The notes beneath the pieces were generated by a model, which did no database searches, had not been told where the DNA came from, and saw only the letters and a program-made list of their open reading frames with translations. From an uncultured Deferribacteres bacterium (GTDB lineage: Bacteria > Zhuqueibacterota > Zhuqueibacteria > Zhuqueibacterales > Geothermadaptataceae), in the NCBI GenBank assembly GCA_964014485.1, contig CAXHAT010000048.1, positions 1 to 43,256 of the forward strand: DNA of 43,256 nucleotides. Direction: 5' to 3'. The position numbers and the translations under genes are program-made. Of this stretch, positions 10,429 to 26,900 are shown one piece after another (the first letter of the stretch is position 1; each line of letters begins with the position of its first letter).

Positions 10429-11679
10429 AACTTCCCCTTTCTGCTGTTGTCGCCCGGGCGGTTTCCAATTCGAGCGGATTTTTCCCTGGATATTACCCTG
10501 GGCTAGATTGGAAACGCAGACGTCTTATCTGAGACTTGAATTAAGCCGTTCCTTCCTGGAATGCTTAAAGAAAAAAAGCGCCCCATCGTCAATGAATCAG
10601 GCGTGACTTCATATCAACTTTCGTCCGTAAACGGATTTTTGATATGGTTTGTCAGAATTTTTGGCGGGTTAATTATTAGCGTTTTTGCCAGGACGGGGAG
10701 TTTTTGCGAGCTGCCGTTGCAATCGGCCCAACAGTTACATCAGTAGAAACAGAAACCGGTCTAATCCATCATGCGCAAGCCGTCTTCTGAAATCATTGTC
10801 TGATAATGACAATTATATAATCAAGGCGTCGTAATTAGTCAATAACTAATTTGCATGAATGCGCAACCATCAAGAAGGGCGCCAATGATTATATTTGCCG
10901 TTCTTCGATAAAGGCGTTTTATTGCAAAATCGGGACAGATGCGAAGAAAAAGTATCTACGATAGGTAAAATTCGCCACACATGTAGACTCTATTCCATAT
11001 CGGCTCTAAGAAACCGATTTCGCCATTGCTTAACGATGATTCGTGATTCATTGCAGGCCAGCCAGGTCTGAAAAGACGCGGTATGCATATTGCAATATTG
11101 AAAACTTGTGCAGTAGTAATCGAAACGAGTCTGTGAACTCAACTCGAGGAAGCTCAAAATCAAATGTTCTCCTAAAAAGCGGTTGTAATTTTGACATTGT
11201 GAGATGTAGAAAGTACTTGATTAGAAAATAAATTATAGTTATTGAAGATTCATCTTCATGACAAAAGTTTAACACAGTGCTGATCTCACATAACGACGTT
11301 CGTGTACCGAACATTTGAACTTCAACTTGAGTCCGTCATCTTTTCGGTCACAGATTATGCGCATTTAAAGTTAATCGAATAACCTTCGGATCTATCTTGA
11401 ATGTGTTCAAGTCTGTTTCAAAATAATCGCTGGGGAACGCCTTCTTCTCGCACCGCATCTTTTTTTGCTTTCTTACTCACACCTGCTTGAGAAACAAACG
11501 TTCGACTTTCTTCACAAACGACCAAAATGATATCCGAAATCGGCGTTGGTTCTCACCTGTAACAGTGGTTATGCTTTGGGGCTGTACGATTTTCTCTGGT
11601 TTTATGCTGTGATAGACGACTTATGACGCGTCTGTGTGCATTATTACAAGAGTTATCAAATATTTTCCAGGACGTTTTG

Positions 11680-14223
11680 ATGATATTATTTAAGAAAATA
11701 AGAGCCGCCGCAAACCTGCTTGTTTTCCTATCACTTATACTGTTTTTTGAAGCCTGCACCGGCCCGGTATGGCACCGCGCGGATATTGCGATGCGCAGAG
11801 ACGGGCCCGAAGCTGCTGAACAGGTTTTACAAGCCCGTATTCGAAAAAATCCGAAAGATGCTGAAGCTTATTATCGATTGGCGCAAGTTCGCGCTAAATT
11901 GGCGCAGGATCACGCAGAAGCAAAAAGATGGCGCGAATCCGGGGAAAAGTGGACGCAAGCCGCCGAAGCCTTTACGAAAAGTGAAGAATTGAATAACCGC
12001 CTCCGCAGCATTGTTATCCAAAGGAAAGATTTTTATTGGAAACAAAATATGCGTCTCGGCCTCGCCGAACTCAAAAAGTCTCAGTTTGAGCAGGCGGCGG
12101 AGTTCTTCAACATCGCGACGATCATATCACCGACCGAGGCGCTTGGTTACAGGCTATCTGGAGAAGCGTTCTGGGGGTTGGCCGATTCGCTTGAAAGTCG
12201 AAGACGATTTTTTACCAAGCTAAATGACCCGTCTCGAGCTGCGATTTTGGGTGAGAAAGCGCAGGCGGCTTTGCAAAACTCGAGAATTGCGTTTCAAAAC
12301 GTATTGCAACACGATTACAAAGATCATCGAGCGCGTCGATTCCTGATAAAAATTTATTTTGACACGGGTGCGTTTCATGAAGCGATAAAAGAAGCTGATA
12401 CGATGCTTCGCCTTAAGCCAAACGATAAAGAAGCCATGCGAATCCGCGCCTATTCTTTTGATAAGCTGGATCGTAGAGAAGAAGCGACAAAAGCTTACCG
12501 AGCGCTTGTTGAGAAAGAGCCTCTATCCGAAGATCTCGAATCTTTCGCGGCGTTTAATTATCGTCATGGAGCATACAACAACTCAGTTTTACTTTCCCAA
12601 AAGTCCATCCAGGCCGGCGGGGAGAGGGCGACCAACATGGAAGCCATTGCTCAATCTCGCCTTATGCAGCAAAATTTCCCGCAACTGTTTAGTACAGCGA
12701 ATGCAATTATTGCCGACGACCAATGGAATGTCAACGCTTTGATGTTAAGACAAGCTTCCGAACTTTCATTGGGTCAACTGGACGCAGCGAATAAAACCGC
12801 TTACGAATATATGAAAGCCGTCGCGCAAGCCCGTTTGATGGCGAAAAAATACCCCGCGCTTCTGCAATCCGCAGATGACCTTTTGAAAGCGGACAGCTCA
12901 AACGTACACCATTTACGATTGCGTTACATTGCGCTCGATTCGTTAGGCTATGAAGAAGCATTTAAAGCCAGGCTGCGCTTCCTGTACGCTTACACCGATT
13001 CTTTGCGAGGGGAAAAAGATTTCTTGGGCATGGTCGAAACAACCAATGTTGTTTTGGGGCTTGACAGTACAAATCGAACCGCGGCGAATATGCAGATTAT
13101 GGCATACGATTCATTGGCGTTGCCGCAAAAAGCTGATCAAGCTCAAATCAATTTGTGGCTCGCTATTGCTGGAAAAGCCTTTAGTGAGAAAAGATTTCAA
13201 CAAACACTGACGCGGTTGGACAGCGTTCTTAATCTGGATCAACTAGATCATCGTGCCCTCAAGATGCGCTACGTTTCTTACGATTCACTCAATTTGCCTC
13301 AAAAGGCGCGCGAAGCGGAAGTCATTTATATTAACGCGCTGGCCGGAGAAGACTTCACTAGAAAAGACTATCAGGAGCATCTGCGTATAGCTGACGAATT
13401 GCTCAAGATTAACAATATCAATAGAGACGCCGTCGAATTGAAAATCAATGCGCTGCTGGGCTTAAATAGAAAAGAAGAAGCAATTCAAACAAGAATTCGT
13501 TTTCTGTTTTCATATGCCGCTTCGCTCAAAGCTGTCGAATCTTATTCGGAAGTACTGCAAACGGCAAATCAAATTCTCGAAATAGAAAAACAAAACCTGC
13601 GCGCTTTAAAACTCAGAATGGATGCTTACGATTTGCTGAGTCAGAATACTGCTGCGAGATCAGCGGAAATAGAGTTTCGCCTCGCGTTGTCAGATTCTCT
13701 GAAGAAAGCAAGTGATTACAAGGGCGTGCTTGCTGAAGCCGATAACATCATTGCGATCAACCCGGTTCATTTGCAGGCGCTCGAAATGCGATTCAACGCT
13801 TTAACCGCGCTTGAATTGCCGGAAGAATCGAAAAAAGCGGAATTGAAATACCTCACCCAAGTTTCTGAAAAATATGAGAAGGAACAAAAAAACCGCGAGC
13901 TGATCAAAACGACCACGCGCATTTTGGAGATTGACCGAACAAACAAACAAGCGGCTGACAGAAAGATCGCAGCCCACCAATCTCTTGGCCAATCCAGGCT
14001 GGCGGAAGAAACGAAGTTCGAATACTGGTATGCTATGGCGCAATCGTATTTCGATCTGGAAAATTATGATCAGGTTCACAAATACGTTGATGAGATTCTA
14101 AGCGTGAATCCGGAACACCTTCCGGCTTTGAAAATGAAGCGCGCAGCTTTTCATTCAAGAGGGTTTATTGACGAAGCGTTGGCAATTCTTAAGAAAATTG
14201 AAATGTTGAGTGGGGAGAAATGA
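11680..14223 (+). CDS. Large TPR protein, probable lipoprotein, with nine tandem ~58-aa TPR-variant repeats
   Basis: AGGA RBS then ATG 11680; hydrophobic leader ending 'LFFEAC' (possible lipobox); classical TPRs ('NPKDAEAYYRLAQV', 'KPNDKEAMRIRAYSFDKL'); 58-aa repeats from nt 12643. Confidence 0.85.
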   Translation: MILFKKIRAAANLLVFLSLILFFEACTGPVWHRADIAMRRDGPEAAEQVLQARIRKNPKDAEAYYRLAQVRAKLAQDHAEAKRWRESGEKWTQAAEAFTKSEELNNRLRSIVIQRKDFYWKQNMRLGLAELKKSQFEQAAEFFNIATIISPTEALGYRLSGEAFWGLADSLESRRRFFTKLNDPSRAAILGEKAQAALQNSRIAFQNVLQHDYKDHRARRFLIKIYFDTGAFHEAIKEADTMLRLKPNDKEAMRIRAYSFDKLDRREEATKAYRALVEKEPLSEDLESFAAFNYRHGAYNNSVLLSQKSIQAGGERATNMEAIAQSRLMQQNFPQLFSTANAIIADDQWNVNALMLRQASELSLGQLDAANKTAYEYMKAVAQARLMAKKYPALLQSADDLLKADSSNVHHLRLRYIALDSLGYEEAFKARLRFLYAYTDSLRGEKDFLGMVETTNVVLGLDSTNRTAANMQIMAYDSLALPQKADQAQINLWLAIAGKAFSEKRFQQTLTRLDSVLNLDQLDHRALKMRYVSYDSLNLPQKAREAEVIYINALAGEDFTRKDYQEHLRIADELLKINNINRDAVELKINALLGLNRKEEAIQTRIRFLFSYAASLKAVESYSEVLQTANQILEIEKQNLRALKLRMDAYDLLSQNTAARSAEIEFRLALSDSLKKASDYKGVLAEADNIIAINPVHLQALEMRFNALTALELPEESKKAELKYLTQVSEKYEKEQKNRELIKTTTRILEIDRTNKQAADRKIAAHQSLGQSRLAEETKFEYWYAMAQSYFDLENYDQVHKYVDEILSVNPEHLPALKMKRAAFHSRGFIDEALAILKKIEMLSGEK

Positions 14224-17200
14224 AAACAGAAAGGCAAAAACAAACAATTTTTCAGCAGAGTGCTTTGAAAAACGCCGCCTTCATTCTTGGCTTTCTACTT
14301 CTAATTGTGGCGGGCAAGGCGTATGGGCAGGGTTTGTCTCCGGATCAAACCATTCCAGTGCAGAATTCCGTATTGGCGCTTCCAGACGCTCCGATAGAGT
14401 TGACTTATCCAGAGGAAATTGACGCCGCCTCATTGCAAAACGAATTGTTTACGATTTACGGAGAGCACAACGGTTATTATTCAATCGGCTCGGTTCAGTT
14501 GTTGAATGAACAAAAAACGATTTCTATCACGGCGACCCCGAATTTTTTAGAAGGCGAAAATATCGTTTTCATGATGCGTGACGGCGTTAAAACTGATGGC
14601 GGCCAGAGCGTAACGCCGTTTCGATTGGAATTTCGAGTAAGCAATCGTGCTGGGATTATTCACGACGAGTTTTTTCCTGTTGATGTTGATTTGATTAGTG
14701 GCGAAAGCAGACCTGTACGCCTCACGGCGGGTCGATTTGACGAAGACGAATATATCGATCTTGCAGTGATCAGCCATGCTTCTAACCAAGTAACGGTCTT
14801 GCGGAATGACCGCGGATTGAGTTTCACGGAAATGTGGGCGGGCACTATCGCGAAACCGGCGGAAACGCCAATTAAGAATCTAGGCCCGTCTGATGTTGCC
14901 AGCGGCGATTTCAATGATGACGGTTTGGTCGATATTATCGTTTCTTTTACTGGAAGCGGTCGCGTTTATATTTTGTATAAAACGGGACCGGCGAGCTTTG
15001 AGCCTTACCTCGTCAAGGATGCTGTAGATGGCTTGGGAAATCAACCAAGCGCTATTACTGTTGGGCACTTTGACAACAATGACAGATTGGATTTCGCCGT
15101 AGCCTTTGAGTCTGGAAATCCTACGAAGCTCTTCAAGAATATTGGCAATGACCAAGTTGACGGGAGAGCAAGGTTTCGGTCTTCTAGGAGTGAAGATTTA
15201 CACGCCGCCAATGAAACCAAGCTAGTTGATTTGGTTCACGGTGATTTTGAAGGTGACGGCGACGTTGATTTTGCTGCCATTTTTCAAGGTTCCAGATCGC
15301 TGATTTATTGGATTAACGAGGGCTCTGGAGGTTTCGGTGAAGGTCAACGAATCGCCTTGGAAGCTCTACCCATAAGCGTTCGTTTGCAGAATGTAAAAGG
15401 CGCCTTGGGAAACGACGGCGCTTCCGCTTTTAAAGAAATTGCCGTTTTGACGAGCACAATGCCTTCATTAGCGAAAAGTGCCGCAGTTCAGGTGTTAGAC
15501 TCCGGTCGTCTGGAAGTTTTTGAATTTGAGAAGGGACCAATACTCGGTGAATTCTCGCTCGTTAAGCAAACGCCATTTTCTTTTTTACCAGCGGCGTTTT
15601 CTCCGATCAGCATAGACGGCGATCCGAACCTTGAGTTCGCTGCACGTGATAACAGCATGGATTTTATCGTTGTAGGCAGAATTGAAGAAGAAGACACCTC
15701 CGGAGAAAGACTCGACTACGTCCTTTTTGATGAAAACGCGCCTCGTACTCTGGAATCAGATGCGTTAAACGGAGCAAAAGACGTCATCACCGCTGATTTT
15801 AATCGGGACGGCGTCGACGACATTGTTTACGCAAGCGAACTTCTGCCTAAGCTGCGCTATTTGCGCTCACGCTGTGCGGCCCCCAAACAATTTTTCGTCG
15901 ATTTCGGAGACGTTTTTGTTGGAAACGATTCCATTATTGTAAAACCGATTCAATTGGAAAATTCCATTCCGGTACGTGTCAAAATTGTCTGGAATGACAA
16001 AGAACATTATCGAATAACGCCGGAAGAGTTCGATCTGCCGCCAAATGGCGTACAAAATCTGACGATTCAATTCTCTCCTACAGACACGGTTGCCTACCCG
16101 TTAATAGCCGAGATTCAAACTGACCTGCCCGATGCAGCGGAATGCGCAACTGAGCTTTCGCTCAATGGGCGCGGAATAAGAGTCGTGTTTAACTTAAACT
16201 CCGAGGCGTGCCAATTCCCGGTCACGCCGCCCAATTCAGTCTCAAATTGCCCGATTTTAGTAACGAATGACGGTAACGCAGATTTGATCTTGAACGGCTT
16301 TAGGTTATTGAGCGGTTTAAGTGAGTTTAAATTGCCCGACCTCAGCGGAGATTTTATTGTACCTGCAAATTCAAGCCGTGAGATTATTGCCGTTTTCTGT
16401 CCGGACGAAATTGGCGTGTTTGAGGACACTCTCGTCATCAATAGTAACGACCCGGACGCTCCGCAACGACGGGTCATACTTCGCGGTGAAAGCACCACAA
16501 ATTTTCCTGTATTTTGCGATACGACAAGCGTTACAGCGACAGAAGATGAAGAGTTCTGCCTTTTGATAAAGCAAGGCGCATGCTCGACAAGTGTAGGCGA
16601 CGAAGCAGTTTGTCAAATCCGTGTTTTTGAAGACCCGGATAACGAAGCTCTCAAATTCAGATTTGTGGACGTTCCTTCCTGGATCACGGAAATTGATACG
16701 ATCAACTATACAGCTAAAGGAACGCCGGGTGAAGGCGACCTCGATACAACAATTAAAGTGGTGGCTTATAAACAGTTCGTCGAAGTCACTCGGGAAATCG
16801 CTATCAAAGTCGAGCCTGTGAATGACCCGCCAGTTATTGAGAATTTGCCCGAGACTGTCACCATAGACGAAAATGATTTTCTCGAATTCACGGTGATTGC
16901 GTCCGACCCTGAAGATTCTTTGCTGACCATTTTTGCAGAGTTTCCTTCAGACATTTGCGGGGAATCTGATTTTGTTCAAGATTCGGAAACTACCGGGATT
17001 TTTAGCTGGATCCCAGGATTTGGCTGTGCGCATACTCACGTGATCCAGTTTTTCGCCCGCGAGAAACATAAGCACGATCAACCGCCGCCGTTGACAAGCG
17101 CGCCAGGAGTTCTCACAATCGAAGTGGGCAGATTGATTCCTGACTTGGTCGCAGAAAATTTGAGTTTGTCGTTTATGGGAAAATCGGTGGCTCCAAATGA

Positions 17201-17771
17201 GGTTTTCGTTGGCCAGGATATCGATATGGTCGTCGAGTACAGCGTGCAAGGAACGCCAATTCTCGAGGGTGAATCATTTGTTGTTCGACTGACTGTGGAC
17301 GGAGAGACTTTCAATTTCACAGAATCGAACGGCGTCCGTCTCAACGAGCAAGCGATGACCATGGCTTTTACCCACAAATTTACTCAGGAAGGGATGTTCA
17401 CCGCTCACATCCAGGTTGACGTCGATGATGCAATTGAAGAGGATAACGATGAAAACAATATTTTAGAAGTTCCGATTACCGTTTCTCCAGGCAAAGTCGT
17501 CGTAAAACGGAATCCGTTCACGCCCAACAATGACGGCGTCAACGATGAAGTGATTTTCAGCCTGGAAGAGTTGAGCGTTTCAAGCGGCGAGTTGATGATT
17601 TTCAGTTTAAGCGGGCGATTAGTTTACAAAAAGCGGTTTGACTCCCAGATCGATGTCACCTGGAACGGCCGCGATGCGAACGGCACAGATCAATTGCCCG
17701 GCGTTTACATTTTTGTTCTGAATGGGAATAACAAAAGATTGGACGAAGGCTATGTTACACTTGCGCGTTAG
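14220..17771 (+). CDS. Secreted adhesin-like protein: Big_5-like Ig, FG-GAP/VCBS propeller, two ASH/choice-of-anchor-D Ig domains, cadherin-like domains, CARDB, T9SS type-B (gliding motility-associated) CTD
   Basis: Signal peptide ending 'AYG-Q'; 'GDFNDDGLVDIIV', 'GDFEGDGDVDFA', 'ADFNRDGVDDIV'; 'VDFGDVFVG', 'TNDGNADL..INSNDPD'; 'VNDPPVI'; 'PDLVAENL..VDVDDAIEEDNDENN'; C-terminus 'NPFTPNNDGVND..IFSLSGRLVY..WNGRD..PGVYIFVL..GYVTLAR'. ATGA overlap with the upstream gene. Confidence 0.88.
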   Translation: MKTERQKQTIFQQSALKNAAFILGFLLLIVAGKAYGQGLSPDQTIPVQNSVLALPDAPIELTYPEEIDAASLQNELFTIYGEHNGYYSIGSVQLLNEQKTISITATPNFLEGENIVFMMRDGVKTDGGQSVTPFRLEFRVSNRAGIIHDEFFPVDVDLISGESRPVRLTAGRFDEDEYIDLAVISHASNQVTVLRNDRGLSFTEMWAGTIAKPAETPIKNLGPSDVASGDFNDDGLVDIIVSFTGSGRVYILYKTGPASFEPYLVKDAVDGLGNQPSAITVGHFDNNDRLDFAVAFESGNPTKLFKNIGNDQVDGRARFRSSRSEDLHAANETKLVDLVHGDFEGDGDVDFAAIFQGSRSLIYWINEGSGGFGEGQRIALEALPISVRLQNVKGALGNDGASAFKEIAVLTSTMPSLAKSAAVQVLDSGRLEVFEFEKGPILGEFSLVKQTPFSFLPAAFSPISIDGDPNLEFAARDNSMDFIVVGRIEEEDTSGERLDYVLFDENAPRTLESDALNGAKDVITADFNRDGVDDIVYASELLPKLRYLRSRCAAPKQFFVDFGDVFVGNDSIIVKPIQLENSIPVRVKIVWNDKEHYRITPEEFDLPPNGVQNLTIQFSPTDTVAYPLIAEIQTDLPDAAECATELSLNGRGIRVVFNLNSEACQFPVTPPNSVSNCPILVTNDGNADLILNGFRLLSGLSEFKLPDLSGDFIVPANSSREIIAVFCPDEIGVFEDTLVINSNDPDAPQRRVILRGESTTNFPVFCDTTSVTATEDEEFCLLIKQGACSTSVGDEAVCQIRVFEDPDNEALKFRFVDVPSWITEIDTINYTAKGTPGEGDLDTTIKVVAYKQFVEVTREIAIKVEPVNDPPVIENLPETVTIDENDFLEFTVIASDPEDSLLTIFAEFPSDICGESDFVQDSETTGIFSWIPGFGCAHTHVIQFFAREKHKHDQPPPLTSAPGVLTIEVGRLIPDLVAENLSLSFMGKSVAPNEVFVGQDIDMVVEYSVQGTPILEGESFVVRLTVDGETFNFTESNGVRLNEQAMTMAFTHKFTQEGMFTAHIQVDVDDAIEEDNDENNILEVPITVSPGKVVVKRNPFTPNNDGVNDEVIFSLEELSVSSGELMIFSLSGRLVYKKRFDSQIDVTWNGRDANGTDQLPGVYIFVLNGNNKRLDEGYVTLAR

Positions 17772-19635
17772 ACGAGTATCGGCGTTCACGCTGTTTTGCT
17801 TGATAGGCATGGCTGGCTTTGGGCAAGCGCAGGTCGGTTCAAATTATTTTGAAGCCGGGCCTACCAATATTTATGATTGGCGATCTTCATTGGTCAATCC
17901 GTCGATCAGTGCATTGCAGACAGGAGCTTTGGAAGTTGGATATAAAGCATTTCAAGTCGGATTTGGCAATGGCGGCGACGGCGCCTTACGGGCCGGATAC
18001 GCCATTCTCAACATGCCCCGGCGCCTGCCGAACAACATCGGTTTTGGACTGCAAAGCCAAACATTCCAGTCGATGATGTATAACGAAACGGAACTTCGAG
18101 TCCTGCTTAATCGCAGCATGTCGTCGATGTTTTCGATAGGTGCGAGCTTTGGCTTTTTCAATGTTTCATTCGATCAGGAACATTTTCAGGACGTCCAGCC
18201 TAACGATCCCGTTTTTGCCAATGGTTATTCATTTTGGCGCCCGGACGTCAATCTTGGCGTCACTTTTACGCCGAACAATACGCTGATCATTGGGCTGGGC
18301 GTCGAACATGTCAACAGCCCGAGCGTGGCTTTGGCGCAACCTGCAATTAATTTAAAACCTGCTATTACTTTCGGAATAAGCTACTCGTTCGGCTCGGCCA
18401 CGATTCAAACGAGCAGCAAGAAAGACCAAACGAGCTTCACGCCGCGTTCGACGATCCAATTCAATGATGAACGGCTTGGCTTTGTTCAGGGAAGCGTTGA
18501 CAAGAACGCTATCCGTCTGCTTTCCCACTTAAACGTCTCGGGTCCGTTTGCAGTCGGATACGGCGTAAATTACCCGATTGGGGAATTAGCGGGAACCAGC
18601 GTTGGAAATCACGAAGTTGCGATGATTTATGAATTTGACAAAATAGTTCGAGGCGGTAAGCTGGGAGGCCTTCCTGATGATTGGCAGGCAAATGTTCCTG
18701 AAATGCCTCGCATTCGAATCGCTCCCCAATTTATGGTTTTGGCCGATGAGCAAACCGTCAGCATCGCATCGAATTACATAACCAGGCATATCGAAGATTT
18801 GGACAGCGCTGCATTAAGCAAGTTGACAAAATTTGACTTGGGCCTGAGTGACGATTCTTTGACGACAGAATCCCCGTTCCTCGACGGGCAGCTTGCTCTT
18901 TCTGAAGCCGATACTATGAACGGCTATTTTGACCGGACGGATAGGATTCCGCCTGGAATCAGCCTTGCCGACACGGCTGCGACTCAAAAAGGCGGGTTTC
19001 AGACAGAGATGTTTTACCTGAGCTTTCTTGATTCATTAGGTCGTACGCTAAAATCCGACGGCAGGAAAAAAGCTATAATCGTTACGCCCGACCAACAGTT
19101 GAATCGCGCCCAGCACATTCGAAACTATATGACGCTGCACAACAACGTGCCCGAGCATCAGTTTCAAATAAAGAAGCTGGAGGAAGGGAAGCAGACGAAA
19201 TCAGACATAACCATCCAGGTTTGGAAAGATTTTGATATTCCAAAACATGACACAATTCGCGTCGCGTCTCCAGGGTCGGTGGAATTGACCGTCTTTCCGA
19301 TAGATTCTAGTATGTATGATAGAACCTGGACTTTCGTCGTCGAAGATTCCAGCGGAAAACGCGTCTACATGCGAGAAGGCAAGGGGGACGAGAAGCAAAC
19401 CTTTGTTTGGGATTGGACTGATATGAACAAGAACGATCCTGATCCGTCCCAAAATATTATTTCTCACGGATTTTATCGCTACTATGTGGAGTGGCTTGAA
19501 GATGAAGAACGATTCCGCTCCGCCAAACAAGTTTTTTACGCACGCGAGATTAGGAGCAAGATTGAAATTGGCATTTCAAAAAATTACCCCGGGAAAATTG
19601 AAAGAAAGGAAGAAAAACGGCAACGCGGTAATTGA
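17752..19635 (+). CDS. PorP/SprF-family outer-membrane beta-barrel with a ~330-aa C-terminal extension
   Basis: Signal peptide ending 'GQA-Q'; PorP-like 'SLVNPS', 'NDPVF', 'IGLGVEHVNSP', barrel end 'GNHEVAMIYEF'. It directly follows a type-B CTD gene, which is the established PorP/SprF synteny. Confidence 0.75.
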   Translation: MLHLRVRRVSAFTLFCLIGMAGFGQAQVGSNYFEAGPTNIYDWRSSLVNPSISALQTGALEVGYKAFQVGFGNGGDGALRAGYAILNMPRRLPNNIGFGLQSQTFQSMMYNETELRVLLNRSMSSMFSIGASFGFFNVSFDQEHFQDVQPNDPVFANGYSFWRPDVNLGVTFTPNNTLIIGLGVEHVNSPSVALAQPAINLKPAITFGISYSFGSATIQTSSKKDQTSFTPRSTIQFNDERLGFVQGSVDKNAIRLLSHLNVSGPFAVGYGVNYPIGELAGTSVGNHEVAMIYEFDKIVRGGKLGGLPDDWQANVPEMPRIRIAPQFMVLADEQTVSIASNYITRHIEDLDSAALSKLTKFDLGLSDDSLTTESPFLDGQLALSEADTMNGYFDRTDRIPPGISLADTAATQKGGFQTEMFYLSFLDSLGRTLKSDGRKKAIIVTPDQQLNRAQHIRNYMTLHNNVPEHQFQIKKLEEGKQTKSDITIQVWKDFDIPKHDTIRVASPGSVELTVFPIDSSMYDRTWTFVVEDSSGKRVYMREGKGDEKQTFVWDWTDMNKNDPDPSQNIISHGFYRYYVEWLEDEERFRSAKQVFYAREIRSKIEIGISKNYPGKIERKEEKRQRGN

Positions 19636-19676
19636 GCGATTTTAAGGATTTTGATTAACTGAAGAAAGGTGAGACA

Positions 19677-21347
19677 GTGAATTTCGGAATAAGTAAAAGA
19701 ACGCTTTGGGGGTTACTAGTCACGCTGTGTTTTCTAATAGTAGTTGACTTTGGATTAGCGAACCCGCTGCAAGAAACGCAATCCGAAAATCCGACAGCGA
19801 CGCAACAAGATTCAACCGGACAAACAACGCCCGTCTCGGAGCTGGATGCTGTTGCCGCTAAACAACAAGAGGTTACAACACAGGCTGAAACGTTCATTGG
19901 CCTCATCACCCTTGGCGGAATCATTGCGTATGTTATCGTAGGCGTATTCATTGTGGGCGTCGTTTTTCTTTTCTGGAACGCCATCGAATTGTTCCTGGAC
20001 TATAGAAACTCAAAAGAACTGATGACGCTTAAGTTTAGCGAAATTAGCTTGGATCAGCTTAAAAATTCGTTGGAGAACCGTCAAGAATCACACTTGCGCG
20101 GGCTTTTACAGCATATCATCCTCTTTTATGAAGCGGGCGACAGCGCAACAGAAATTCATGAAGAGCTGGTGGGGCACATCAATGTTAAAACTGAAAGCTA
20201 CGAAACATACCGTAACTGGCTGGGATTTCTTGCAGATGCAGCCGGCGGCCTGGGTTTGCTAGGAACGGTCTGGGGAATTTTTCGGACTTTCTTCGGCGGC
20301 GCGCTTGATCCTGATAAAATTTTGAACGGCATGGGCATCGCCTTGATTACTACGCTGGTCGGAGTTGGCGTTAGCTTGATTATCAATTTTGGGGGCACGA
20401 AACTCTTTGGCACTTTTAATAAGCGAATGAAAGATATTGCCGAGAAAGCCGATGAGCTTCGTCTCCACTTACTTGGCCTCGATTCGCAGAAAGCGCACAA
20501 AAGAATATCGAAAAGCAGCCATTTTGTGCCTGGCGGGGAGAATACAACCGTAGCGGCGACCAACGGCAATGCCCCTGAAGTCGATTTCGGAGAATTCTTG
20601 CAAGACCTAAAAACGACCATTGCAGATTCAATTGGAACGCGCACGGTTGAAAACGTAAGCACAAAAACGAAACGCAGTACAGCCGTAGATGTTGTTCGCG
20701 ATGCTCCTGGTTTTGTTTTTGAAATCGACGACTCCTTGCCTGCGACGATCTCCTCCGGAGCTACGCTGCAAAAGGCGCTGAAGCTTACTTTGCTCGACCA
20801 GGCGGGATTGCCAATCCAGAAAGCCAAAGTCTTTTTTAGTGCTGAGGGCGCGGTGCACTTCGACAATAAGAAAAACAAAATCGACCGGCCTACGGATAAA
20901 AAAGGTGAGATCGCCGTCAATATTCACGCTGAAGAAAAAACCGGACACGGTGAAATTCGATTCTGGCTCGAAAACTACATGGATGACGCCGAGATTGTCG
21001 AATTCAATGTTACAGCCAGCGTGCCGGAGAAAATTGCTATCGACGGCGGAGACGATCAAATCGGATTTGTTGGGCAGGCGCTGTCTCAGCCTCTGCAAGT
21101 GGTTGTGCGAGATCGGTTTGACAACTTGGTGGAAAATGCTGAAATAGCCTTCGATGCGGTTGACGGCGACGGCGTGATTAACGGGCTTCAAAAACAATGT
21201 ATTATTCGCACCGATAAAAACGGATATGCGGAAGCCACCTACACTTTAGGCAGAAAAACGCATTTTCACACAATCAATGCGAAAATAAAAAACGGCAAGG
21301 GCGATTCTGTGGTTTTCCATGTTTTAGGAAAAGCGAAAAATGCTTAA
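19677..21347 (+). CDS. MotA/TolQ/ExbB proton-channel protein fused to two C-terminal Big_1 (invasin/intimin-type) Ig-like domains
   Basis: Signal peptide plus 3 TMs; 'LGLLGTVWGI' and 'GMGIALITTLVG' channel motifs; tail 'GGDDQIGFVGQALSQPLQVVVRDRFDNLVENAEIAF..TDKNGYAEATYTLG'. GAAAGGTG RBS, GTG start. Confidence 0.88.
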   Translation: MNFGISKRTLWGLLVTLCFLIVVDFGLANPLQETQSENPTATQQDSTGQTTPVSELDAVAAKQQEVTTQAETFIGLITLGGIIAYVIVGVFIVGVVFLFWNAIELFLDYRNSKELMTLKFSEISLDQLKNSLENRQESHLRGLLQHIILFYEAGDSATEIHEELVGHINVKTESYETYRNWLGFLADAAGGLGLLGTVWGIFRTFFGGALDPDKILNGMGIALITTLVGVGVSLIINFGGTKLFGTFNKRMKDIAEKADELRLHLLGLDSQKAHKRISKSSHFVPGGENTTVAATNGNAPEVDFGEFLQDLKTTIADSIGTRTVENVSTKTKRSTAVDVVRDAPGFVFEIDDSLPATISSGATLQKALKLTLLDQAGLPIQKAKVFFSAEGAVHFDNKKNKIDRPTDKKGEIAVNIHAEEKTGHGEIRFWLENYMDDAEIVEFNVTASVPEKIAIDGGDDQIGFVGQALSQPLQVVVRDRFDNLVENAEIAFDAVDGDGVINGLQKQCIIRTDKNGYAEATYTLGRKTHFHTINAKIKNGKGDSVVFHVLGKAKNA

Positions 21348-21771
21348 GAGGAAGCGGCGCAGAAAATACGCCAGCGGCCTGATGGTGCGCTTGATAGACA
21401 TCGTGTTCATTCTTCTGTTTGGCTTCGTCGCCATCTCGGAAGTTGACAGGATGAGCAAGGTTAAATTGGCAAAAAGCGATTCAGTTTCAAAAAATCGTCC
21501 TGAACAAAAAACGGTCATCTATATTAGCATTCCAGCCGACGGCGTTTACTGGGTTGAGAATGAAACGAGACGCCTAGACACGATTCAAGAAGTTGAGCGG
21601 TATATTCTGCAAAAACGCGATCAATATGCAGAGAAAAACATTGATCTGGACGTTCGAATTCGAGCGAGTCACAACTCTGCAGTCAAGTATGCTTTTCCGG
21701 TCGTCAGGCGCTGCCAGAATATGAATGTTCATGTTGAAATGGACGTTATTCGGCAAGAAAGCAGTACATAA
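21340..21771 (+). CDS. ExbD/TolR family protein 1
   Basis: Basic N-terminus, TM 'LIDIVFILLFGF' with the conserved Asp, periplasmic domain 'VRIRASHNSAVKYAFPVV'. Confidence 0.85.
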   Translation: MLKRKRRRKYASGLMVRLIDIVFILLFGFVAISEVDRMSKVKLAKSDSVSKNRPEQKTVIYISIPADGVYWVENETRRLDTIQEVERYILQKRDQYAEKNIDLDVRIRASHNSAVKYAFPVVRRCQNMNVHVEMDVIRQESST

Positions 21772-21789
21772 AACCAAGGAATTTGTGTT

Positions 21790-22212
21790 GTGAAAGGCGG
21801 CATGATCATTCGGTTAATTGATATTGTCTTGATAATCTTGTTTGGTTTTATTGGCATCAGCGACATACAAATCAAACGACAAATCAAATTAGCCGGCAAA
21901 CCTTTAGAACAGCCAGAATCGGACGAAGAGCCCAAAGAAACAGTCCAATTGTTTGTTCTTATTCACTCCAAAGATCGCTTCGAACTTAAGGTCGATGAAA
22001 CGATTTTTCTGGAAGTCAATAACATAAAAAGTCTGCGTAGAGCGCTCCTTGACCAGCGTCGTGAAGCTTTCAACGCGGGCAAAAATTTTCTTGTTATCAT
22101 TGATCCTTTGGAAGAATCAACCATTCAGCTCATGGTCGATGTTTACGATCTCTGTGAAAAAGAAAAAATAAATAAAAGCATAGACTTTCAGCTTTCCGAG
22201 AGTTCCTCATGA
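21790..22212 (+). CDS. ExbD/TolR family protein 2
   Basis: TM 'LIDIVLIILFGF' with the conserved Asp; 'LVIIDPLEESTIQLMVDVYDLC' matches the ExbD periplasmic beta-alpha element. Confidence 0.85.
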   Translation: MKGGMIIRLIDIVLIILFGFIGISDIQIKRQIKLAGKPLEQPESDEEPKETVQLFVLIHSKDRFELKVDETIFLEVNNIKSLRRALLDQRREAFNAGKNFLVIIDPLEESTIQLMVDVYDLCEKEKINKSIDFQLSESSS

Positions 22213-23267
22213 CCCAGGATCAAAAGCAAAAAATCTCAACCGCTGTTTTATCGGCGATTTTTCTACTTTTGGTATTCCTGCTCATGGCGGTTTCCAAAGT
22301 GCCGAAGAATGACGTCAGCGAAGTGATCGCAAAAATCGATGTAGACATGCTGGCGAAGTTTGAGCCGAAAAAGATCGAATTTAAGAAGCCAGAACCTGAA
22401 AAAGAAGAACCTGAAGAAATCGAGAAAGAGCCTGAGCCTGAAGAAACCACGGAAGAAGTCCCCGAAGAAGTTGACGTTCAACCTGACCAGACGGTTGAAA
22501 GGGTTGAATTGAATTTGGATGTTTTCAAGCAGCTAAACGCAGGAGAAGTTCAGGCTCCAACGAAAACGATTGAAGCGCCTGGACGCGCAACACCGGAATT
22601 GCCGTCGGTAGACATAAATAAGCGCAAAGCGACGGTGAAAGTGGCAGGCCCTACTTTGGTTGATGATCAATCGACGCTAACCTCTTTCAGCAGAAAAAAC
22701 AATGCGGCGAATTTGGACATCGAGGCGGGAACGGTCAAGGATGCAGCGCCTGGGCAAACATCTTACGGAACCGATGGAGGAGCCGACGATCAAGGCAGGC
22801 AGACGCTTGGGACGAGTACTGGCCCTCAGATTACAATGGTTAGCAAAGCCGCCTTGAGAAGAGGGAAGGTTGAGCTTATTAACCTGAACGCCCTCATAAA
22901 GTGGATGAAGGAAAACCCGGCTGACTTTGACCGTGTAATCAAAAATTTTGTTGAGTATAAAACGGGGGCTTTGACTTCTCGCGCAACCTTCAAAATCAAA
23001 GGCCAAAGCTTTGAGCTTTACATTATGTGTTTCGAAGCGACGTCTGAAGTCAGGATTGCGCTTATCGAAGGCAATCAAGTGATCAGGCTGATCGATCAAG
23101 GATTTACCGGTGAGAATGAGCAGTTTGTCATCGGCAGCGTTTTGCGGGCTGGAAAGAAAATACTCGGATTCAATACATCGCAAAAACCAATTGGGGATGA
23201 GCAAAGTTCAAACTTTAACCAAATTGTAGTCTCGTGGTGGGAGAGTGTCAAAGATGAAGTTTTATAG
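22209..23267 (+). CDS. TonB/TolA-like single-pass protein with Pro/Glu/Lys-rich linker and unrecognised C-terminal domain
   Basis: N-terminal TM, 'KKPEPEKEEPEEIEKEPEPEE' linker, long low-complexity segment, globular ~130-aa C-domain; ATGA-coupled to exbD2. Confidence 0.7.
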   Translation: MTQDQKQKISTAVLSAIFLLLVFLLMAVSKVPKNDVSEVIAKIDVDMLAKFEPKKIEFKKPEPEKEEPEEIEKEPEPEETTEEVPEEVDVQPDQTVERVELNLDVFKQLNAGEVQAPTKTIEAPGRATPELPSVDINKRKATVKVAGPTLVDDQSTLTSFSRKNNAANLDIEAGTVKDAAPGQTSYGTDGGADDQGRQTLGTSTGPQITMVSKAALRRGKVELINLNALIKWMKENPADFDRVIKNFVEYKTGALTSRATFKIKGQSFELYIMCFEATSEVRIALIEGNQVIRLIDQGFTGENEQFVIGSVLRAGKKILGFNTSQKPIGDEQSSNFNQIVVSWWESVKDEVL

Positions 23268-24783
23268 GCTGAAATTAATTTTAACCGCGGGGACAATTTA
23301 CTGCGCAATGTTTGCTTTTCAAGGCTGCGCAACAAAAATTAAAACAGTGTACGTGCCTGCCGGTGTGGATTCGACGATTTCGCAAATGGCTGACTCAATA
23401 GCGCACACACTTTTTGTTGAATATGAAAAACAAGAACGCGCGCAGCGAATGTCTGACTCCGCCCAGGCTCTGTTCATCGTCGCCGACGATCTTTGGGAGT
23501 TGTTAAAAAAAGATTCCGGTCGAACCGGAAGCGTCAATTCAGCGGATTCGATTGAAGCCATCCGCAAAAGCAACGTGGCGGCTCAAAACATATTGAGTTC
23601 CGCCAACCTGCAAAATGACAATTCGATTCCTGAGGAATCCAAACGCGAACAAATCTATACTCACCTTGACAACGCACGCGCTTTGCTCGAAGAAGCGATC
23701 AAGCTGAACCCGTTTGATACGCAGGCCCGCGATTACCTTGCTCTAACGTACAGCACTCTTGCACAAAGATTTGAAGAAGATCAATATTGGGGCCTTACCG
23801 CTGAAGTTCTGACGCTTTTGTTGAGAATGGACCAAAGCCAGCATATTCTTTACTCTCGCCTGGCCAGATGTTATACCGAAGTTGACCGATGGGATAAAGC
23901 GCTGGAAAATTATAAAAATGCGGAAGAAGTTCTTGTTGAATCCGCGGTTTTTGAAGTGCCGAAAGATCAGCCGCTGAACCAGCAAACAGAGGCGGCGGCG
24001 CTGGATTCGAACAGCCTTTACATTTATGTGCTCAACCAAGCCATTTCACATATGCGCCTTTTTGAGGAAGAACCGACGTTTGTTCAATTGGATCGCGCAA
24101 AAGTCTTGGCTAGAACGGAAGAACAGCAAGAAAATGTAAAGACGTTTTATGATGCAGGCATGTGGGACGGCAGGAACCTCGTTGCGACGGACAAGCGAGA
24201 CACTTTGAGCGCCTATCTTGGACGCAAAGATTATAATGCGGCGGCAAAACTTTGTGAAGAGCTTTTGCCCAATTTGCGCACGCCCAAAGCGACGCAGGAA
24301 ATCAAGTGGCAGTTAGCAACTTTGGAATATATTGAATTAGATAAAAAAGACGCCGGGTTGACCAGAATGAAGCAAGTCGTCGATTTCTATGCCAACGACA
24401 GTTTGGGAATGGCGCTGGCGGAAACAGACACGATGTATCAATACTATCTTGATCGTTACGGCGTCATGTGCTTCAATAGCGGCCAAACTGCGGAAGAAAT
24501 AGGACGCGACCAGGTTGGAGCGCTAAAATATTACGAACAGTCCGCAAGTATTCCTTGGCAAAGCCAGGGAAAAGCGTACCTGGCCGTTGCTTCAATCGCC
24601 CAAAATGATCCCGAGAAATCTGTCAATGCGGCGAAAAAAGCGCTGGAACTGCAACGCCAGCTTGATCCGGAAGAAATATGTCAATCGCTGCAGTTGGTCG
24701 TGGCCGGCTACAGAAAAAGGCGCATGACTGATGAAGCACGGCCCTTTTTTCTAAAATATCGCGAATGTGAGGCTACAAACTAA
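23254..24783 (+). CDS. TPR lipoprotein
   Basis: Lipobox 'FQGC' after a hydrophobic leader; TPRs 'LEEAIKLNPFDTQARDYLALTY', 'LYSRLARCYTEVDRWDKALENYKNA'. Overlaps the upstream stop. Confidence 0.85.
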   Translation: MKFYRLKLILTAGTIYCAMFAFQGCATKIKTVYVPAGVDSTISQMADSIAHTLFVEYEKQERAQRMSDSAQALFIVADDLWELLKKDSGRTGSVNSADSIEAIRKSNVAAQNILSSANLQNDNSIPEESKREQIYTHLDNARALLEEAIKLNPFDTQARDYLALTYSTLAQRFEEDQYWGLTAEVLTLLLRMDQSQHILYSRLARCYTEVDRWDKALENYKNAEEVLVESAVFEVPKDQPLNQQTEAAALDSNSLYIYVLNQAISHMRLFEEEPTFVQLDRAKVLARTEEQQENVKTFYDAGMWDGRNLVATDKRDTLSAYLGRKDYNAAAKLCEELLPNLRTPKATQEIKWQLATLEYIELDKKDAGLTRMKQVVDFYANDSLGMALAETDTMYQYYLDRYGVMCFNSGQTAEEIGRDQVGALKYYEQSASIPWQSQGKAYLAVASIAQNDPEKSVNAAKKALELQRQLDPEEICQSLQLVVAGYRKRRMTDEARPFFLKYRECEATN

Positions 24784-25613
24784 TGAAACGTCTTTTCAAT
24801 CGTTCATCTATTCTCGTAATCGTTTTAAGTATAACCGTGAACGCTTTGGTGTATGCTGCGTTCTCTCCGCCTAAACAGGCCGTCCAAAACGAACAGCCAG
24901 TGATCCAGCCGGTCATGGTGCAAACGGTGATGATCGTTGATGACGCCTTAATCGCCGACATGCTCGTTTCGAGCTTAATTCCCGAGAATCCGGCAACCGT
25001 CGATTCGATCCAGGTCATCGATGCGACAAGTAATGGTTTTGGGGAAAACGACATGATTATTTTGCATCCGCAGCAAATCTCTTACACGTTTAATGCGCAA
25101 GGCCAGGTTCGGGAATTGATGAAAAATTGGAAAACTCAGACAGGCCGACAGCTTGATTATGTTGACCTTACTCCTGACAGGTTAGATTCCATAAAACTGG
25201 ATGATGTTACTGAACAAGCCGCGAAGAACATGTTAAGCGGCATCTTACGCACGATTGAGCACAACTCAGACGCATCGGAAATGAAAGTATATCTGGAGCG
25301 TGAAAAAGGCGGGAAATTGTTTTTTCGCGTCTGGGGATATGATGAGGATAATGCAAACTCATTGAAACCAGGAGACCCTCGCGAATTATTTGGGTCGGGG
25401 TTGCCAACGCAGAATTATGATGTTTTCCGCGTTCACAGGCAAGACCTTGATACGCTGATCAACAACACCGCGACGATGTACGACCAAATCTATATTTACC
25501 GCTTTGAGACCGACACGGTTTTCGTTTCGCCTGGGGATGATCAAATCAGGACTTTGTACGAAAAAGCAAAACTCCCTGGGCTGACTCGTCCAAGCTTGAA
25601 AGAAAAGAAATAG
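24783..25613 (+). CDS. Membrane-anchored hypothetical protein with a TonB-like N-terminal anchor
   Basis: TAATG coupling; N-terminal 'VLSITVNALVYAAF..QPVMVQTV'. The rest is unrecognised. Confidence 0.7.
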   Translation: MKRLFNRSSILVIVLSITVNALVYAAFSPPKQAVQNEQPVIQPVMVQTVMIVDDALIADMLVSSLIPENPATVDSIQVIDATSNGFGENDMIILHPQQISYTFNAQGQVRELMKNWKTQTGRQLDYVDLTPDRLDSIKLDDVTEQAAKNMLSGILRTIEHNSDASEMKVYLEREKGGKLFFRVWGYDEDNANSLKPGDPRELFGSGLPTQNYDVFRVHRQDLDTLINNTATMYDQIYIYRFETDTVFVSPGDDQIRTLYEKAKLPGLTRPSLKEKK

Positions 25614-25637
25614 ACGGAAGATTTAAAAGAAGAGCAA

Positions 25638-26900
25638 TTATTCTCTCCAAGCTTGCAAAAGCAAACATGTGTTTAACCCGCCCGAGCCAAAGTTGCCTTT
25701 GGCCATAATTCCCACTTTTTCATTGCTCTTGGTCTTACGTACGATCCGATTTTCGACCGGCTTCAAAGCCTCGTCAAGACGCTCGCAATTTTTTGAAGGG
25801 TGTAGGAATTCGTGGTGAATTTGTAAAACCGAGGCCGCCGATTCCATGCCGCCCGCTGCTCCAAGACCGTGACCAATGAGAGATTTTGTTGCGTTAATGA
25901 AGGGCATGTTGTCGTCGTTTACGCCGAGCGCTCGCCGCCAGGCAAATATCTCCTGAACGTCTTCCGGGGCGCCAATGAGATTTCCATTTATTGCATCCAC
26001 CTGCCCGCCTGAAATTTTTGCGTCATCCAATGCAAGTTTGATGCAGTGTGCTATGCTTTCTACTTCCAGCGTTTGCGACTGACGATGATTCGCTCTGCCG
26101 CCGGCGCTGTGCGCTACGCCGATGATTTCAGCGTAAATTCGAGCCCCTCTCTCCCGCGCAATTTTTTCGTCTTCAAGTACTAAAATACCGGCTCCGGCAG
26201 CCGGCACAAACCCGGTTGCATCGGCGCTCATGGGACGGGAAGCTTGGTCCGGCGTATCGTTGTGTCTGCGGTTTAACATACCCTTTGCGTCAAAACCAGC
26301 CCACGTATAAATCGAAACGCCTTCTATTCCACCTGCAAGCATGCGATTCGCATAACCGTGTCGAATCCATCGTGCGGCTTCAGCGATGGCTGCCGTTCCG
26401 GTATTTGCTACGCCGCAATTGGTAGAAACACGATTCCCCAGCCCAAGTAAATAGGCGGCCCGCACGGCAACGCCGTTCGGAATAATCCGTTCAATCGTGT
26501 TTCTGTCCAAACGCCGGACGCGCTTGGCGTTGGTCAGCGGAACAACTTCTCGGGCTACCGTATCTAGACCGCCAAAGCCGGTGCCAAGAATTGCGCCTGA
26601 ATTCCACAAAATCTGCTCGTTTGTTTCATCGGGAATTTCCAGGCCGGCGTCGCGCCAAGCGGCGAGAACCGCTGTTTCACCGAATTGCATGAACGTGTTA
26701 TTCGATTCTTGCGGTCTGTGAGAAGGCTGATCATCCGAGTATTCGGGGATTCCGGCAACGCGGCAGCCGAATTTGTGTTCTGCGAGTTTCGGAACATACC
26801 GAAGCCCTGACTTTCCTGACTTCAATGCGTCAAGAAATGAAGATTTGTCCGGCGCATTCGGGGCTACAACCCCCAAGCCGGTTACAACAACTCTGTTCAT
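25638..26900 (-). CDS. FabF-like beta-ketoacyl-ACP synthase homologue with degenerate active site
   Basis: 'RVVVTGLGVVAPN', 'ASRPMSADATGFVPAAGAGILVLE', 'ATKSLIGHGLGAAGGME'; the catalytic Cys position reads 'NCGVANTG' and the first His position reads 'INGNLIG'. Confidence 0.88.
   Translation of the reverse strand: MNRVVVTGLGVVAPNAPDKSSFLDALKSGKSGLRYVPKLAEHKFGCRVAGIPEYSDDQPSHRPQESNNTFMQFGETAVLAAWRDAGLEIPDETNEQILWNSGAILGTGFGGLDTVAREVVPLTNAKRVRRLDRNTIERIIPNGVAVRAAYLLGLGNRVSTNCGVANTGTAAIAEAARWIRHGYANRMLAGGIEGVSIYTWAGFDAKGMLNRRHNDTPDQASRPMSADATGFVPAAGAGILVLEDEKIARERGARIYAEIIGVAHSAGGRANHRQSQTLEVESIAHCIKLALDDAKISGGQVDAINGNLIGAPEDVQEIFAWRRALGVNDDNMPFINATKSLIGHGLGAAGGMESAASVLQIHHEFLHPSKNCERLDEALKPVENRIVRKTKSNEKVGIMAKGNFGSGGLNTCLLLQAWRE

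Follow-up and report, generated by a model that had tools for sequence, protein, structure and literature searches.

What would a proton-driven motor of the ExbB/ExbD type be doing in the same operon as a surface adhesin of a type IX secretion system (T9SS) and the outer-membrane carrier of that adhesin? The question is raised by a block of nine genes, named here g1 to g9, within a 43,256-nucleotide stretch of DNA from an uncultured Deferribacteres bacterium that GTDB places in the Zhuqueibacterota (assembly GCA_964014485.1, contig CAXHAT010000048.1, referred to below as C48). This whole stretch is called the window, and positions are given in its numbering unless another contig is named. The answer that we favor, with a probability of roughly 0.65, is that g2–g9 encode a dedicated proton-driven motor that acts on its own pair of PorP-type carrier and adhesin, a function predicted from the sequences and gene neighborhoods described below.

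Organization of the locus

The open reading frame (ORF) listing of the window confirmed nine plus-strand ORFs between 11680 and 25613, all co-oriented and mostly overlapping. The gene order and the junctions agree exactly with a first-pass annotation that had been made from the sequence alone, and searches against Pfam and NCBIfam recovered the tetratricopeptide repeat (TPR), type-B adhesin, PorP/SprF, ExbB with an immunoglobulin (Ig)-like domain, and two ExbD assignments which that annotation had proposed. The nine genes are as follows.

11680–14223 (+; ORF span 11623/11680–14223): g1, an 847-aa TPR lipoprotein (866 aa from the ATG at 11623) with matches to TPR_14, TPR_2 and TPR_16 and a lipobox, FFEAC, that holds the Cys

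14220–17771 (+): g2, a 1183-aa adhesin-like cargo protein with a signal peptide and a type-B T9SS sorting domain at its C terminus (Pfam)

17752–19635 (+; ORF span 17722/17752–19635): g3, a 627-aa PorP/SprF-like 14-strand outer-membrane barrel with a C-terminal extension of ~330 aa (PorP_SprF, AlphaFold2 model)

19677–21347 (+): g4, a 556-aa proton-channel subunit of the ExbB/TolQ/MotA family with a C-terminal extension of ~315 aa that carries a Big_1 Ig-like domain (Pfam)

21340–21771 (+): g5, ExbD/TolR-like subunit 1, 143 aa (ExbD 42.9 bits, cut-off 25.4)

21790–22212 (+): g6, ExbD/TolR-like subunit 2, 140 aa (ExbD 27.7 bits, cut-off 25.4)

22209–23267 (+): g7, a 352-aa candidate force transducer made up of a transmembrane (TM) helix, a linker and a C-domain (~205–352) without a Pfam match (AlphaFold2 model)

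23254–24783 (+; ORF span 23245/23254–24783): g8, a 509-aa TPR lipoprotein and the best conserved protein of the module (TPR_2, TPR_1; lipobox FQGC with Cys)

24783–25613 (+): g9, a 276-aa protein, secreted and probably periplasmic, that belongs to an unnamed family and matched neither Pfam nor NCBIfam

Four-nucleotide ATGA overlaps are found at 14220 and 22209, a one-nucleotide TAATG overlap at 24783, and further gene overlaps at 17752, 21340 and 23254. Only two gaps separate genes, of 41 nt (19636–19676) and 18 nt (21772–21789).

Three diverged copies in one genome

The nine proteins were searched against the 8.4-Mb, 97% complete assembly with tblastn, and the matches were confirmed by ORF calling and phmmer. 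The genome carries three diverged copies of the module, namely the one in the window and the two that follow.

C16, 18277–28160: ExbB with Ig domain, ExbD, ExbD, g7, g8, g9, type-B cargo, long PorP

C3, 38027–49917: long PorP, ExbB, type-B cargo, a 942-aa protein with a type-A C-terminal sorting domain (CTD), ExbD, ExbD, g7, g8, g9

The paralogous proteins are 20–39% identical to those of the window, and the three copies have three different gene orders. A scan of all ORFs with profiles built from the three copies returned exactly three full sets, and three of the four PorP_SprF genes of the genome lie within them. The cargo genes of both paralogous loci keep the CTD, and outside this sorting tail the cargo is otherwise entirely different. 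When their sequences are read by eye, without a Pfam call, the C16 and C3 cargo proteins look cohesin-like and the extra 942-aa type-A protein of C3 looks vWA/dockerin-like. No counterpart of g1 was found at the C16 or C3 loci. Its occurrence is restricted to modules with the gene order of the window (type I, below), upstream of which weak g1 matches are seen, and g1 is thus an accessory outside the conserved core of g2–g9.

A few module-related genes lie elsewhere in the genome. These are an orphan g9 at C84:29916–30758 (+), a strong type-B CTD at the edge of its contig (C17:3–1064, +), and the fourth PorP_SprF gene, an 805-aa ORF at C185:6004–8421 (−). The three may be pieces of a fourth, unassembled unit.

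Conservation of the module across lineages

Related loci were gathered with a 16-row alignment of g7, and synteny was counted with our own profiles using matches of at least 40 bits. This yielded 72 related loci from 60 assemblies labeled Calditrichota/Calditrichia, KSB1/Zhuqueibacterota, Rhodothermales, Balneolales, Gemmatimonadota or unclassified. The Balneolales set includes two cultured carriers, a Rhodohalobacter sp. (L045) and a Balneolaceae isolate (L059). Where the flanks of g7 reached at least 8 kb on the upstream side and at least 7 kb on the downstream side, all eight families (g2–g9) were found on one strand in 30 of 35 loci. ExbB and both ExbD genes lie upstream of g7 in 53 of the 58 loci with at least 3.5 kb on that side, and g8 and g9 follow g7 in 49 of the 50 loci with at least 3.5 kb downstream. 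The five evaluable loci that are incomplete differ in kind: one lacks the motor genes (L034), one is without a cargo call (L036), one is divergent (L050), one is from Gemmatimonadota (L069), and in one g9 is non-adjacent (L084). Chance adjacency was considered as an explanation and rejected, given that the same eight families occur together at three loci of this genome and in the 30 of 35 evaluable loci elsewhere.

Three gene orders recur, which we refer to as type I (like the window), type II (like C16) and type III (like C3). A quick IQ-TREE phylogeny of g8 places type III in one clade with an SH-aLRT support of 100 (17 type III rows and two whose flanks are too short to be typed) and type II in one clade with a support of 99, so that gene order tracks phylogeny. 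Each of the genome's three copies adjoins the matching locus of one related assembly. The agreement of both gene order and paralogues with the g8 tree indicates that the sets evolve as units and were duplicated long ago. The adhesin/PorP half of the block thus stays linked to the motor half in the three paralogues and in the Calditrichota, KSB1/Zhuqueibacterota and Rhodothermales/Balneolales loci, which bears out the linkage that the first-pass annotation had proposed. The synteny that it proposed to look for in further phyla holds for these lineages; in Gemmatimonadota the core occurs without PorP or type-B cargo nearby.

Two observations on the labels of these assemblies should be noted. An identical contig of 29,941 bases occurs in two assemblies that are labeled KSB1 and Phycisphaerae (L065 and L066), and several loci bear Cytophagia, Bacteroidetes or Deferribacteres labels that do not fit the loci closest to them in the g8 tree.

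The adhesin and its carrier

The g2 protein contains FG-GAP_3, ASH/Ig-like, CARDB and Cadherin_4 domains according to Pfam. Its sorting tail, residues 1097–1181, scores 39.9 bits against CHU_C (cut-off 27) and 19.9 against NCBIfam TIGR04131, under the cut-off of 35. The PorP-family gene g3 comes directly after the cargo gene g2. Its PorP_SprF match (40.9 bits, cut-off 22.3) covers only the first ~300 of 627 aa, and the score against NCBIfam TIGR03519 was 38.1, under the cut-off of 90.55. In the AlphaFold2 (AF2) model of g3, a barrel at residues 59–294 (pLDDT >90) is followed by a hairpin, a disordered stretch, and an extension with an alpha/beta domain (416–476) and a beta-sandwich (499–609). 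A Foldseek search with the barrel returned OmpG, FadL/TodX and the T9SS carrier PorV (8gl6_F, TMt 0.54). The C-terminal extension is presumably periplasmic, and a long extension was present in 46 of 46 module homologues of g3 (559–660 aa).

The closest described counterparts of this pair are cargo–carrier pairs of the Bacteroidota T9SS such as SprB and SprF. As in those, a gene for CHU_C/type-B cargo is followed by one for a PorP_SprF barrel of 14 strands, and SprA, PorU and a PorV-like barrel are encoded in the genome. The carrier here is different, however, in that it is ~600 aa long with a folded C-extension of ~330 aa, whereas SprF has a short C-tail. Reading of the translation showed that g3 has no Cys outside its signal peptide, and it thus differs from SprF, for which a disulfide link to GldK is described in the available passages of PMC12635249. 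The pair here also lies in one operon with an ExbBD-type motor, and no GldK, GldN, GldL or GldM was detected. According to the same passages, SprB is connected through SprF to a moving track in the periplasm, and the step for which type 9 transport in Flavobacterium needs energy is the ejection of carrier–substrate complexes from the translocon (PMC12635249).

The predicted motor

The g4 protein contains hydrophobic segments and matches MotA_ExbB with 49.3 bits (cut-off 22.9) and Big_1 with 41.4 bits. All 54 module ExbB homologues exceed the Pfam cut-off for MotA_ExbB, and 31 of the 54 carry Big_1 at the C terminus; the short forms are mostly of type III. We did not assign g4 to an ExbB, TolQ or MotA subfamily because the NCBIfam equivalogs for ExbB, TolQ, MotA and PomA scored far below their cut-offs. 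The standard topology of ExbB is a signal/TM segment followed by three TM helices, with the C terminus in the cytoplasm, and a cytoplasmic site is odd for an invasin-type Ig domain such as that of g4. Repeats that resemble the Ig part of g4 also occur in the same genome in a giant ORF of ~2460 aa with Big_1-like repeats (C287:68–7471, −).

From the translations, g5, g6 and g7 each have a single N-terminal TM helix. The TM Asp of ExbD, TolR and MotB is the essential proton-binding residue, and the corresponding residue is kept in 66 of 67 orthologues of g5 (D20) and in all 69 orthologues of g6 (D11). Based on this conservation, both ExbD subunits look functional. It should be added that g5 and g6 form distinct orthologue groups at every locus.

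A candidate force transducer and its putative partners

The AF2 model of g7, calculated from a 72-row alignment, consists of a TM helix (3–28), an E/K/P/T-rich linker of ~175 aa that extends to ~205 with pLDDT <65, and a C-domain with pLDDT >90. The C-domain is modeled as a pair of short helices and an antiparallel sheet of six strands, with a long helix at the C terminus. Across the family the disordered linker has a median length of 190 aa. The first-pass annotation had named g7 TonB-like, and this was borne out for the architecture alone. TonB_C (PF03544) was matched by 0 of 72 g7-family members at E ≤ 0.1, while the same model gave 12 matches elsewhere in the genome. No TM His is conserved in g7, as at most 7 of 72 sequences have His in any one of the first 40 alignment columns; a TM His is reported for the contact of TonB and TolA with their motors in the available passages of PMC12204202.

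Searches for a relative of known kind gave little. The g7 protein matches no Pfam or NCBIfam family, Foldseek found nothing in the PDB at E ≤ 0.001, and the ESM Atlas held no usable match to the g7 C-domain or to g9. A profile search of PDB sequences touched TonB only through the biased linker of g7 (E 0.04). The best hit of an exhaustive VIA-align comparison was an unrelated protein with a Z of 6.1, which is within the stated noise band of the tool; a distant fold relation may still exist. A word-index search with g7 returned only g7 itself. A profile of the C-domain run against 1.84 billion representatives, by comparison, matched 249 representative clusters at E ≤ 0.001, 196 of them at E ≤ 1e-10, and the members are nearly all 300–370 aa long with the domain at the C terminus. 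We conclude that g7 represents a family without a name and without a clear known fold.

The paralogues of g8 share 29–30% identity over the full length. For g9, none of 37 family members had a Pfam match, and a profile search of PDB sequences returned none. The first-pass annotation had taken g9 for a second anchored protein. Because the paralogues in both C16 and C3 carry ordinary signal peptides that end in SAQ, a secreted periplasmic protein is more likely. In Gemmatimonadota the g9 proteins (L057:5004–7244, L069:11639–14104, L080:5590–7827) are ~750–820 aa long and combine the g9 domain with DxDxSGxID-like repeats, which on reading by eye look like EF-hand or dockerin calcium-binding loops.

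T9SS components in the genome and the phylum

The T9SS components named in the first-pass annotation, and PorU, were looked for in the genome. The genome encodes SprA (693 bits) and PorU (825 bits) together with a PorV-like barrel that falls just under the cut-off (247.9 bits, cut-off 250). About 48 further matches to the CTD part of the PorU model alone suggest that it also encodes many type-A cargo proteins. Searches of the genome for GldL, GldM (TIGR03517, PF12081) and GldN returned no match, the GldM and GldN models being without a positive control, and the GldK model matched FGE domains alone, none of them above 78 bits (cut-off 350). GldM was likewise not over the cut-off in five module-carrying genomes.

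The survey was extended to 151 genomes of the phylum, among them the window's own and also G149 and G092, which are both positive for g7, SprA and PorP. SprA was found in 151 of 151 genomes (147 over the cut-off) and PorP_SprF in 81. GldL was over the cut-off in none of the 151, with one weak match. The same model has a positive control in the phylum to which the Rhodohalobacter genome belongs, where 19 of 81 genomes scored over the cut-off. The suggestion that this lineage may lack GldLM is therefore supported for GldL; the genome also yielded no GldM, GldN or true GldK, in searches without a positive control. A g7 gene was detected in 56 of 151 genomes of the phylum with a profile that might miss very divergent forms. 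All 9 other genomes of the same family have it. In the next two families it is present in 14 of 14 genomes and 14 of 18, respectively, and several families have none. Of the 81 genomes from the other phylum, two (G001, G191) carry g7, and GldL is present in neither. Comparison of the lists by hand showed PorP_SprF in 53 of the 56 g7-positive genomes, the exceptions being G051, G094 and G025. Another 28 genomes are PorP-positive and g7-negative; among the matches listed for these, many ORFs are of ordinary size (~310–380 aa) and some are ~440–870 aa.

These tallies bear on the possibility that the module is the general T9SS energizer of the lineage, replacing GldLM/PorLM and GldKN for all CTD cargo that passes through SprA. 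The presence of SprA, PorU, a PorV-like barrel and ~48 further type-A CTD tails is in keeping with such a role, as are the failure to find GldL, GldM or GldN, a GldK score below the cut-off, and the contrast in GldL between the two phyla. However, 95 of the 151 genomes have SprA without g7. As SprA is universal in the sample and g7 is not, the module is not a general T9SS motor, and a stand-in for GldLM throughout the phylum is not supported. A genome may also have as many as three copies, and since each comes with a cargo and a PorP carrier of its own, the layout fits cargo-specific units better than a central motor. We therefore regard a general energizer as improbable.

In its overall logic the module does resemble GldLM/PorLM with GldKN(J) of the Bacteroidota, in which a proton-driven motor of the inner membrane has a part that spans the periplasm and works on carriers of the PorP/SprF type and on the release of cargo (PMC12635249, PMC8986121, available passages of both). 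The differences are that the protein families are unrelated, that no track protein is encoded in the module, and that a motor is present per cargo here rather than once per cell.

Comparison with Ton, Tol and Agl-Glt systems

A gene order of exbB-exbD-exbD-tonB exists in the Fibrobacteres–Chlorobi–Bacteroidetes (FCB) group. The module shares with such operons, some of which continue with a TPR gene, a MotA/ExbB channel, two ExbD with a TM Asp, a protein built from a TM segment, a linker and a globular domain, and a TPR protein. The likeness brings up Ton-like import, in which the FadL/PorV-like barrel of g3 would be an energized channel for a substrate captured by the adhesin and g7 would serve as TonB. 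From general knowledge, the order of motor, anchor and TPR genes resembles the FCB-type operon, and the barrel fold of g3 matches transporters of the FadL/TodX type. An ExbB/ExbD/ExbD/TonB cluster of Fibrobacter succinogenes is also up on cellulose and has been proposed to import cellodextrins (PMC6851124, available passages). Yet TonB_C is absent from all 72 g7 proteins, and the module contains no TonB-dependent receptor. The sequence of g3 puts it in PorP_SprF, the family to which the carriers of type-B cargo belong, and the cargo always has a T9SS sorting tail. No Fibrobacterota locus is among the 72 g7 relatives. Import is in our judgment slightly less probable than a general energizer. 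The Fibrobacter cluster (FSU_2400-2403) was also considered as a homologue of the module and rejected on the same absence of Fibrobacterota loci.

The motor itself is also set apart from the Ton systems of this genome. The module ExbB proteins are divergent (51–60 bits, versus ~100 bits for six canonical ExbB genes elsewhere in the genome) and often Ig-extended. Three of the canonical ExbB genes lie within 2 kb of one of the TonB_C matches. Ordinary ExbB–TonB_C pairs are thus present at other sites, as expected if the motor described here is not an ordinary Ton system.

An alternative of a different kind is that the ExbB-ExbD-ExbD-g7-g8-g9 core performs Tol-Pal-like envelope maintenance or outer-membrane tethering, with the adhesin and PorP as passengers. 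The build of g7 resembles TolA, with its TM segment, long linker and C-domain, and the TPR lipoprotein g8 may be compared with CpoB, a TPR protein of the Tol cluster. The six-gene core also occurs without PorP or cargo in Gemmatimonadota. Three diverged copies per genome and a patchy presence (56 of 151) are, on the other hand, unfit for a housekeeping function, cargo and PorP stay attached through three independent gene orders and several phylum labels, and the module encodes no TolB, Pal or OmpA-like protein. We consider this the least probable of the alternatives. Import and maintenance are both possible readings that fit the conserved cargo–carrier linkage poorly.

A further analogy by parts is the Agl-Glt machinery of Myxococcus xanthus, which combines a TolQ-like protein and two TolR-like ones with anchored proteins that span the periplasm, TPR proteins, barrels in the outer membrane and an adhesin at the surface. 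The module follows the same parts logic, a likeness of composition that was drawn without sequence comparison to Glt proteins. It differs in that the adhesin has a T9SS sorting tail and a PorP carrier and in that no cytoplasmic partners of the AglZ/MglA type are encoded in the module. GltG and GltJ are said to have TonB_C, which g7 lacks. Agl-Glt is described as the focal-adhesion gliding machine of M. xanthus (PMC11761067, available passages).

The literature was searched for a description of the same gene set. None was found in the full texts covered, a body that excludes subscription journals and supplements, in keeping with the earlier view of the locus as a new system. The set is absent from the available passages of PMC6851124, PMC12204202, PMC12635249, PMC11285876, PMC11683472, PMC9143113 and PMC5317091. 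The part of the Caldithrix abyssi genome paper that was available states only that gliding machinery of the Bacteroidetes type was not found, and the available part of a 2025 survey of periplasmic force transducers describes the vWA type and not the g7 family (PMC12204202).

Proposed mechanism

Based on these findings, we propose that g2–g9 would form a self-contained envelope machine that uses the proton-motive force and is dedicated to one surface adhesin. In this model, ExbB and a heterodimer of the two ExbD would assemble into a proton motor of the 5:2 type in the inner membrane. The g7 protein would be anchored beside the motor by its TM helix, would span the periplasm by way of its flexible linker and C-domain, and would work with the TPR lipoprotein g8, whose gene always adjoins that of g7, and with the secreted g9. 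Its target would be the long periplasmic extension of the g3 barrel. The barrel protein would hold g2, the adhesin with the type-B CTD, once passage through the SprA translocon had brought g2 across the outer membrane. The work of the motor could then pull the loaded carrier out of the translocon, leading to release and display, or could move or tension the adhesin on the surface. Within the dedicated-motor reading two outputs are plausible, each at less than even odds: release or display of the adhesin and, a little less probable, its movement or actuation, which would be akin to SprB on its track or to the focal-adhesion system of myxobacteria.

A dedicated machine is supported by the gene linkage, the conserved TM Asp residues of the motor, the transducer-like build of g7, the long PorP extension and the presence of ordinary Ton systems elsewhere in the genome. 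Of the original proposal, a complex driven by the proton-motive force that exports, displays or moves the adhesin, the dedicated complex is supported by the conserved linkage and by the failure to find GldL in the lineage; g7 as a TonB and the module as a general substitute for GldLM are not.

Several points weigh against this reading. Since g7 has neither TonB_C nor a conserved TM His, gene order is the sole ground on which we assume that it couples to the motor. The absence of Cys from g3 outside the signal peptide rules out a disulfide coupling like that of SprF. If g4 follows the standard topology of ExbB, its Ig-bearing C terminus (window 20400–21347) would be cytoplasmic, which our model leaves unexplained. 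At three loci (L032, L033, L034) the order is g1-cargo-PorP-g7-g8-g9 with no ExbB or ExbD between; the assemblies of these loci contain other complete modules (L074/L086, L085 and L070/L084), which suggests that motors may be shared. In Gemmatimonadota the ExbB-ExbD-ExbD-g7-g8-g9 core is retained, and neither PorP nor type-B cargo is seen as far as the flanks reach (L069 is evaluable; L057, L075 and L080 are partly so); the core may therefore act independently of PorP. Finally, the synteny counts are not independent, since many of the loci share an assembly or stem from related ones.

The components of the module, 5:2 motors and T9SS carriers, are of known kinds, and it is the combination and the transducer that are new. 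To our knowledge, mechanical work is supplied to the outer membrane by only a few systems, namely Ton, Tol, the flagellar stator, GldLM and Agl-Glt. If our reading is correct, the module would add a Ton-type motor that is wired to a T9SS carrier–adhesin pair, not a transporter, through an unnamed transducer family. In its broadest form, the proposal would be that a third, independent proton-driven surface-adhesin machinery exists beside the GldLM track and Agl-Glt, in which a 5:2 motor of the ExbBD type would join a periplasmic force transducer of a new class (g7 with g8 and g9) in pulling directly on a PorP-type carrier, so as to move, tension or eject a T9SS adhesin; as a whole we hold this to be unlikely, though worth stating. 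It would imply that every adhesin has a motor to itself, with as many as three motors in a cell, and KSB1, Calditrichota and Balneolales could then have unrecognized surface motility or force-dependent adhesion. Whole FCB phyla have the SprA translocon and many CTD cargo proteins without GldLM, and the module is a testable candidate for the power source of type 9 export there, for at least the type-B branch. Genetics should be feasible, as two cultured isolates (L045 and L059) carry the module.

Leader region and genomic surroundings

Two features lie upstream of the module.

4483–10428 (−): a protein of 1981 aa that combines an IgGFc_binding domain and seven Glucodextran_B repeats with a T9SS tail of type A, Por_Secre_tail (Pfam/NCBIfam)

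10429–11679 (+): a long non-coding leader and putative promoter region 5' of g1, 1.25 kb without a convincing ORF

The only leader ORF of at least 80 aa is on the minus strand. A strict sigma-54 pattern gave 0 matches, and a loose one was rarer than in shuffled sequence, with none on the plus strand upstream of g1; counts of sigma-70-like sites and terminators were not above the shuffled expectation. The GC content of the leader is 0.43, compared with ~0.51 upstream. The module and leader together (window 10001–26000) have a GC of 0.43–0.475 versus 0.51–0.54 in most of the remaining window, and the module block is ~5 points below its flanks. The gene for the 1981-aa type-A CTD protein is oriented divergently from the module across the 1.25-kb gap, and a fabF-like gene lies downstream of the module in convergent orientation.

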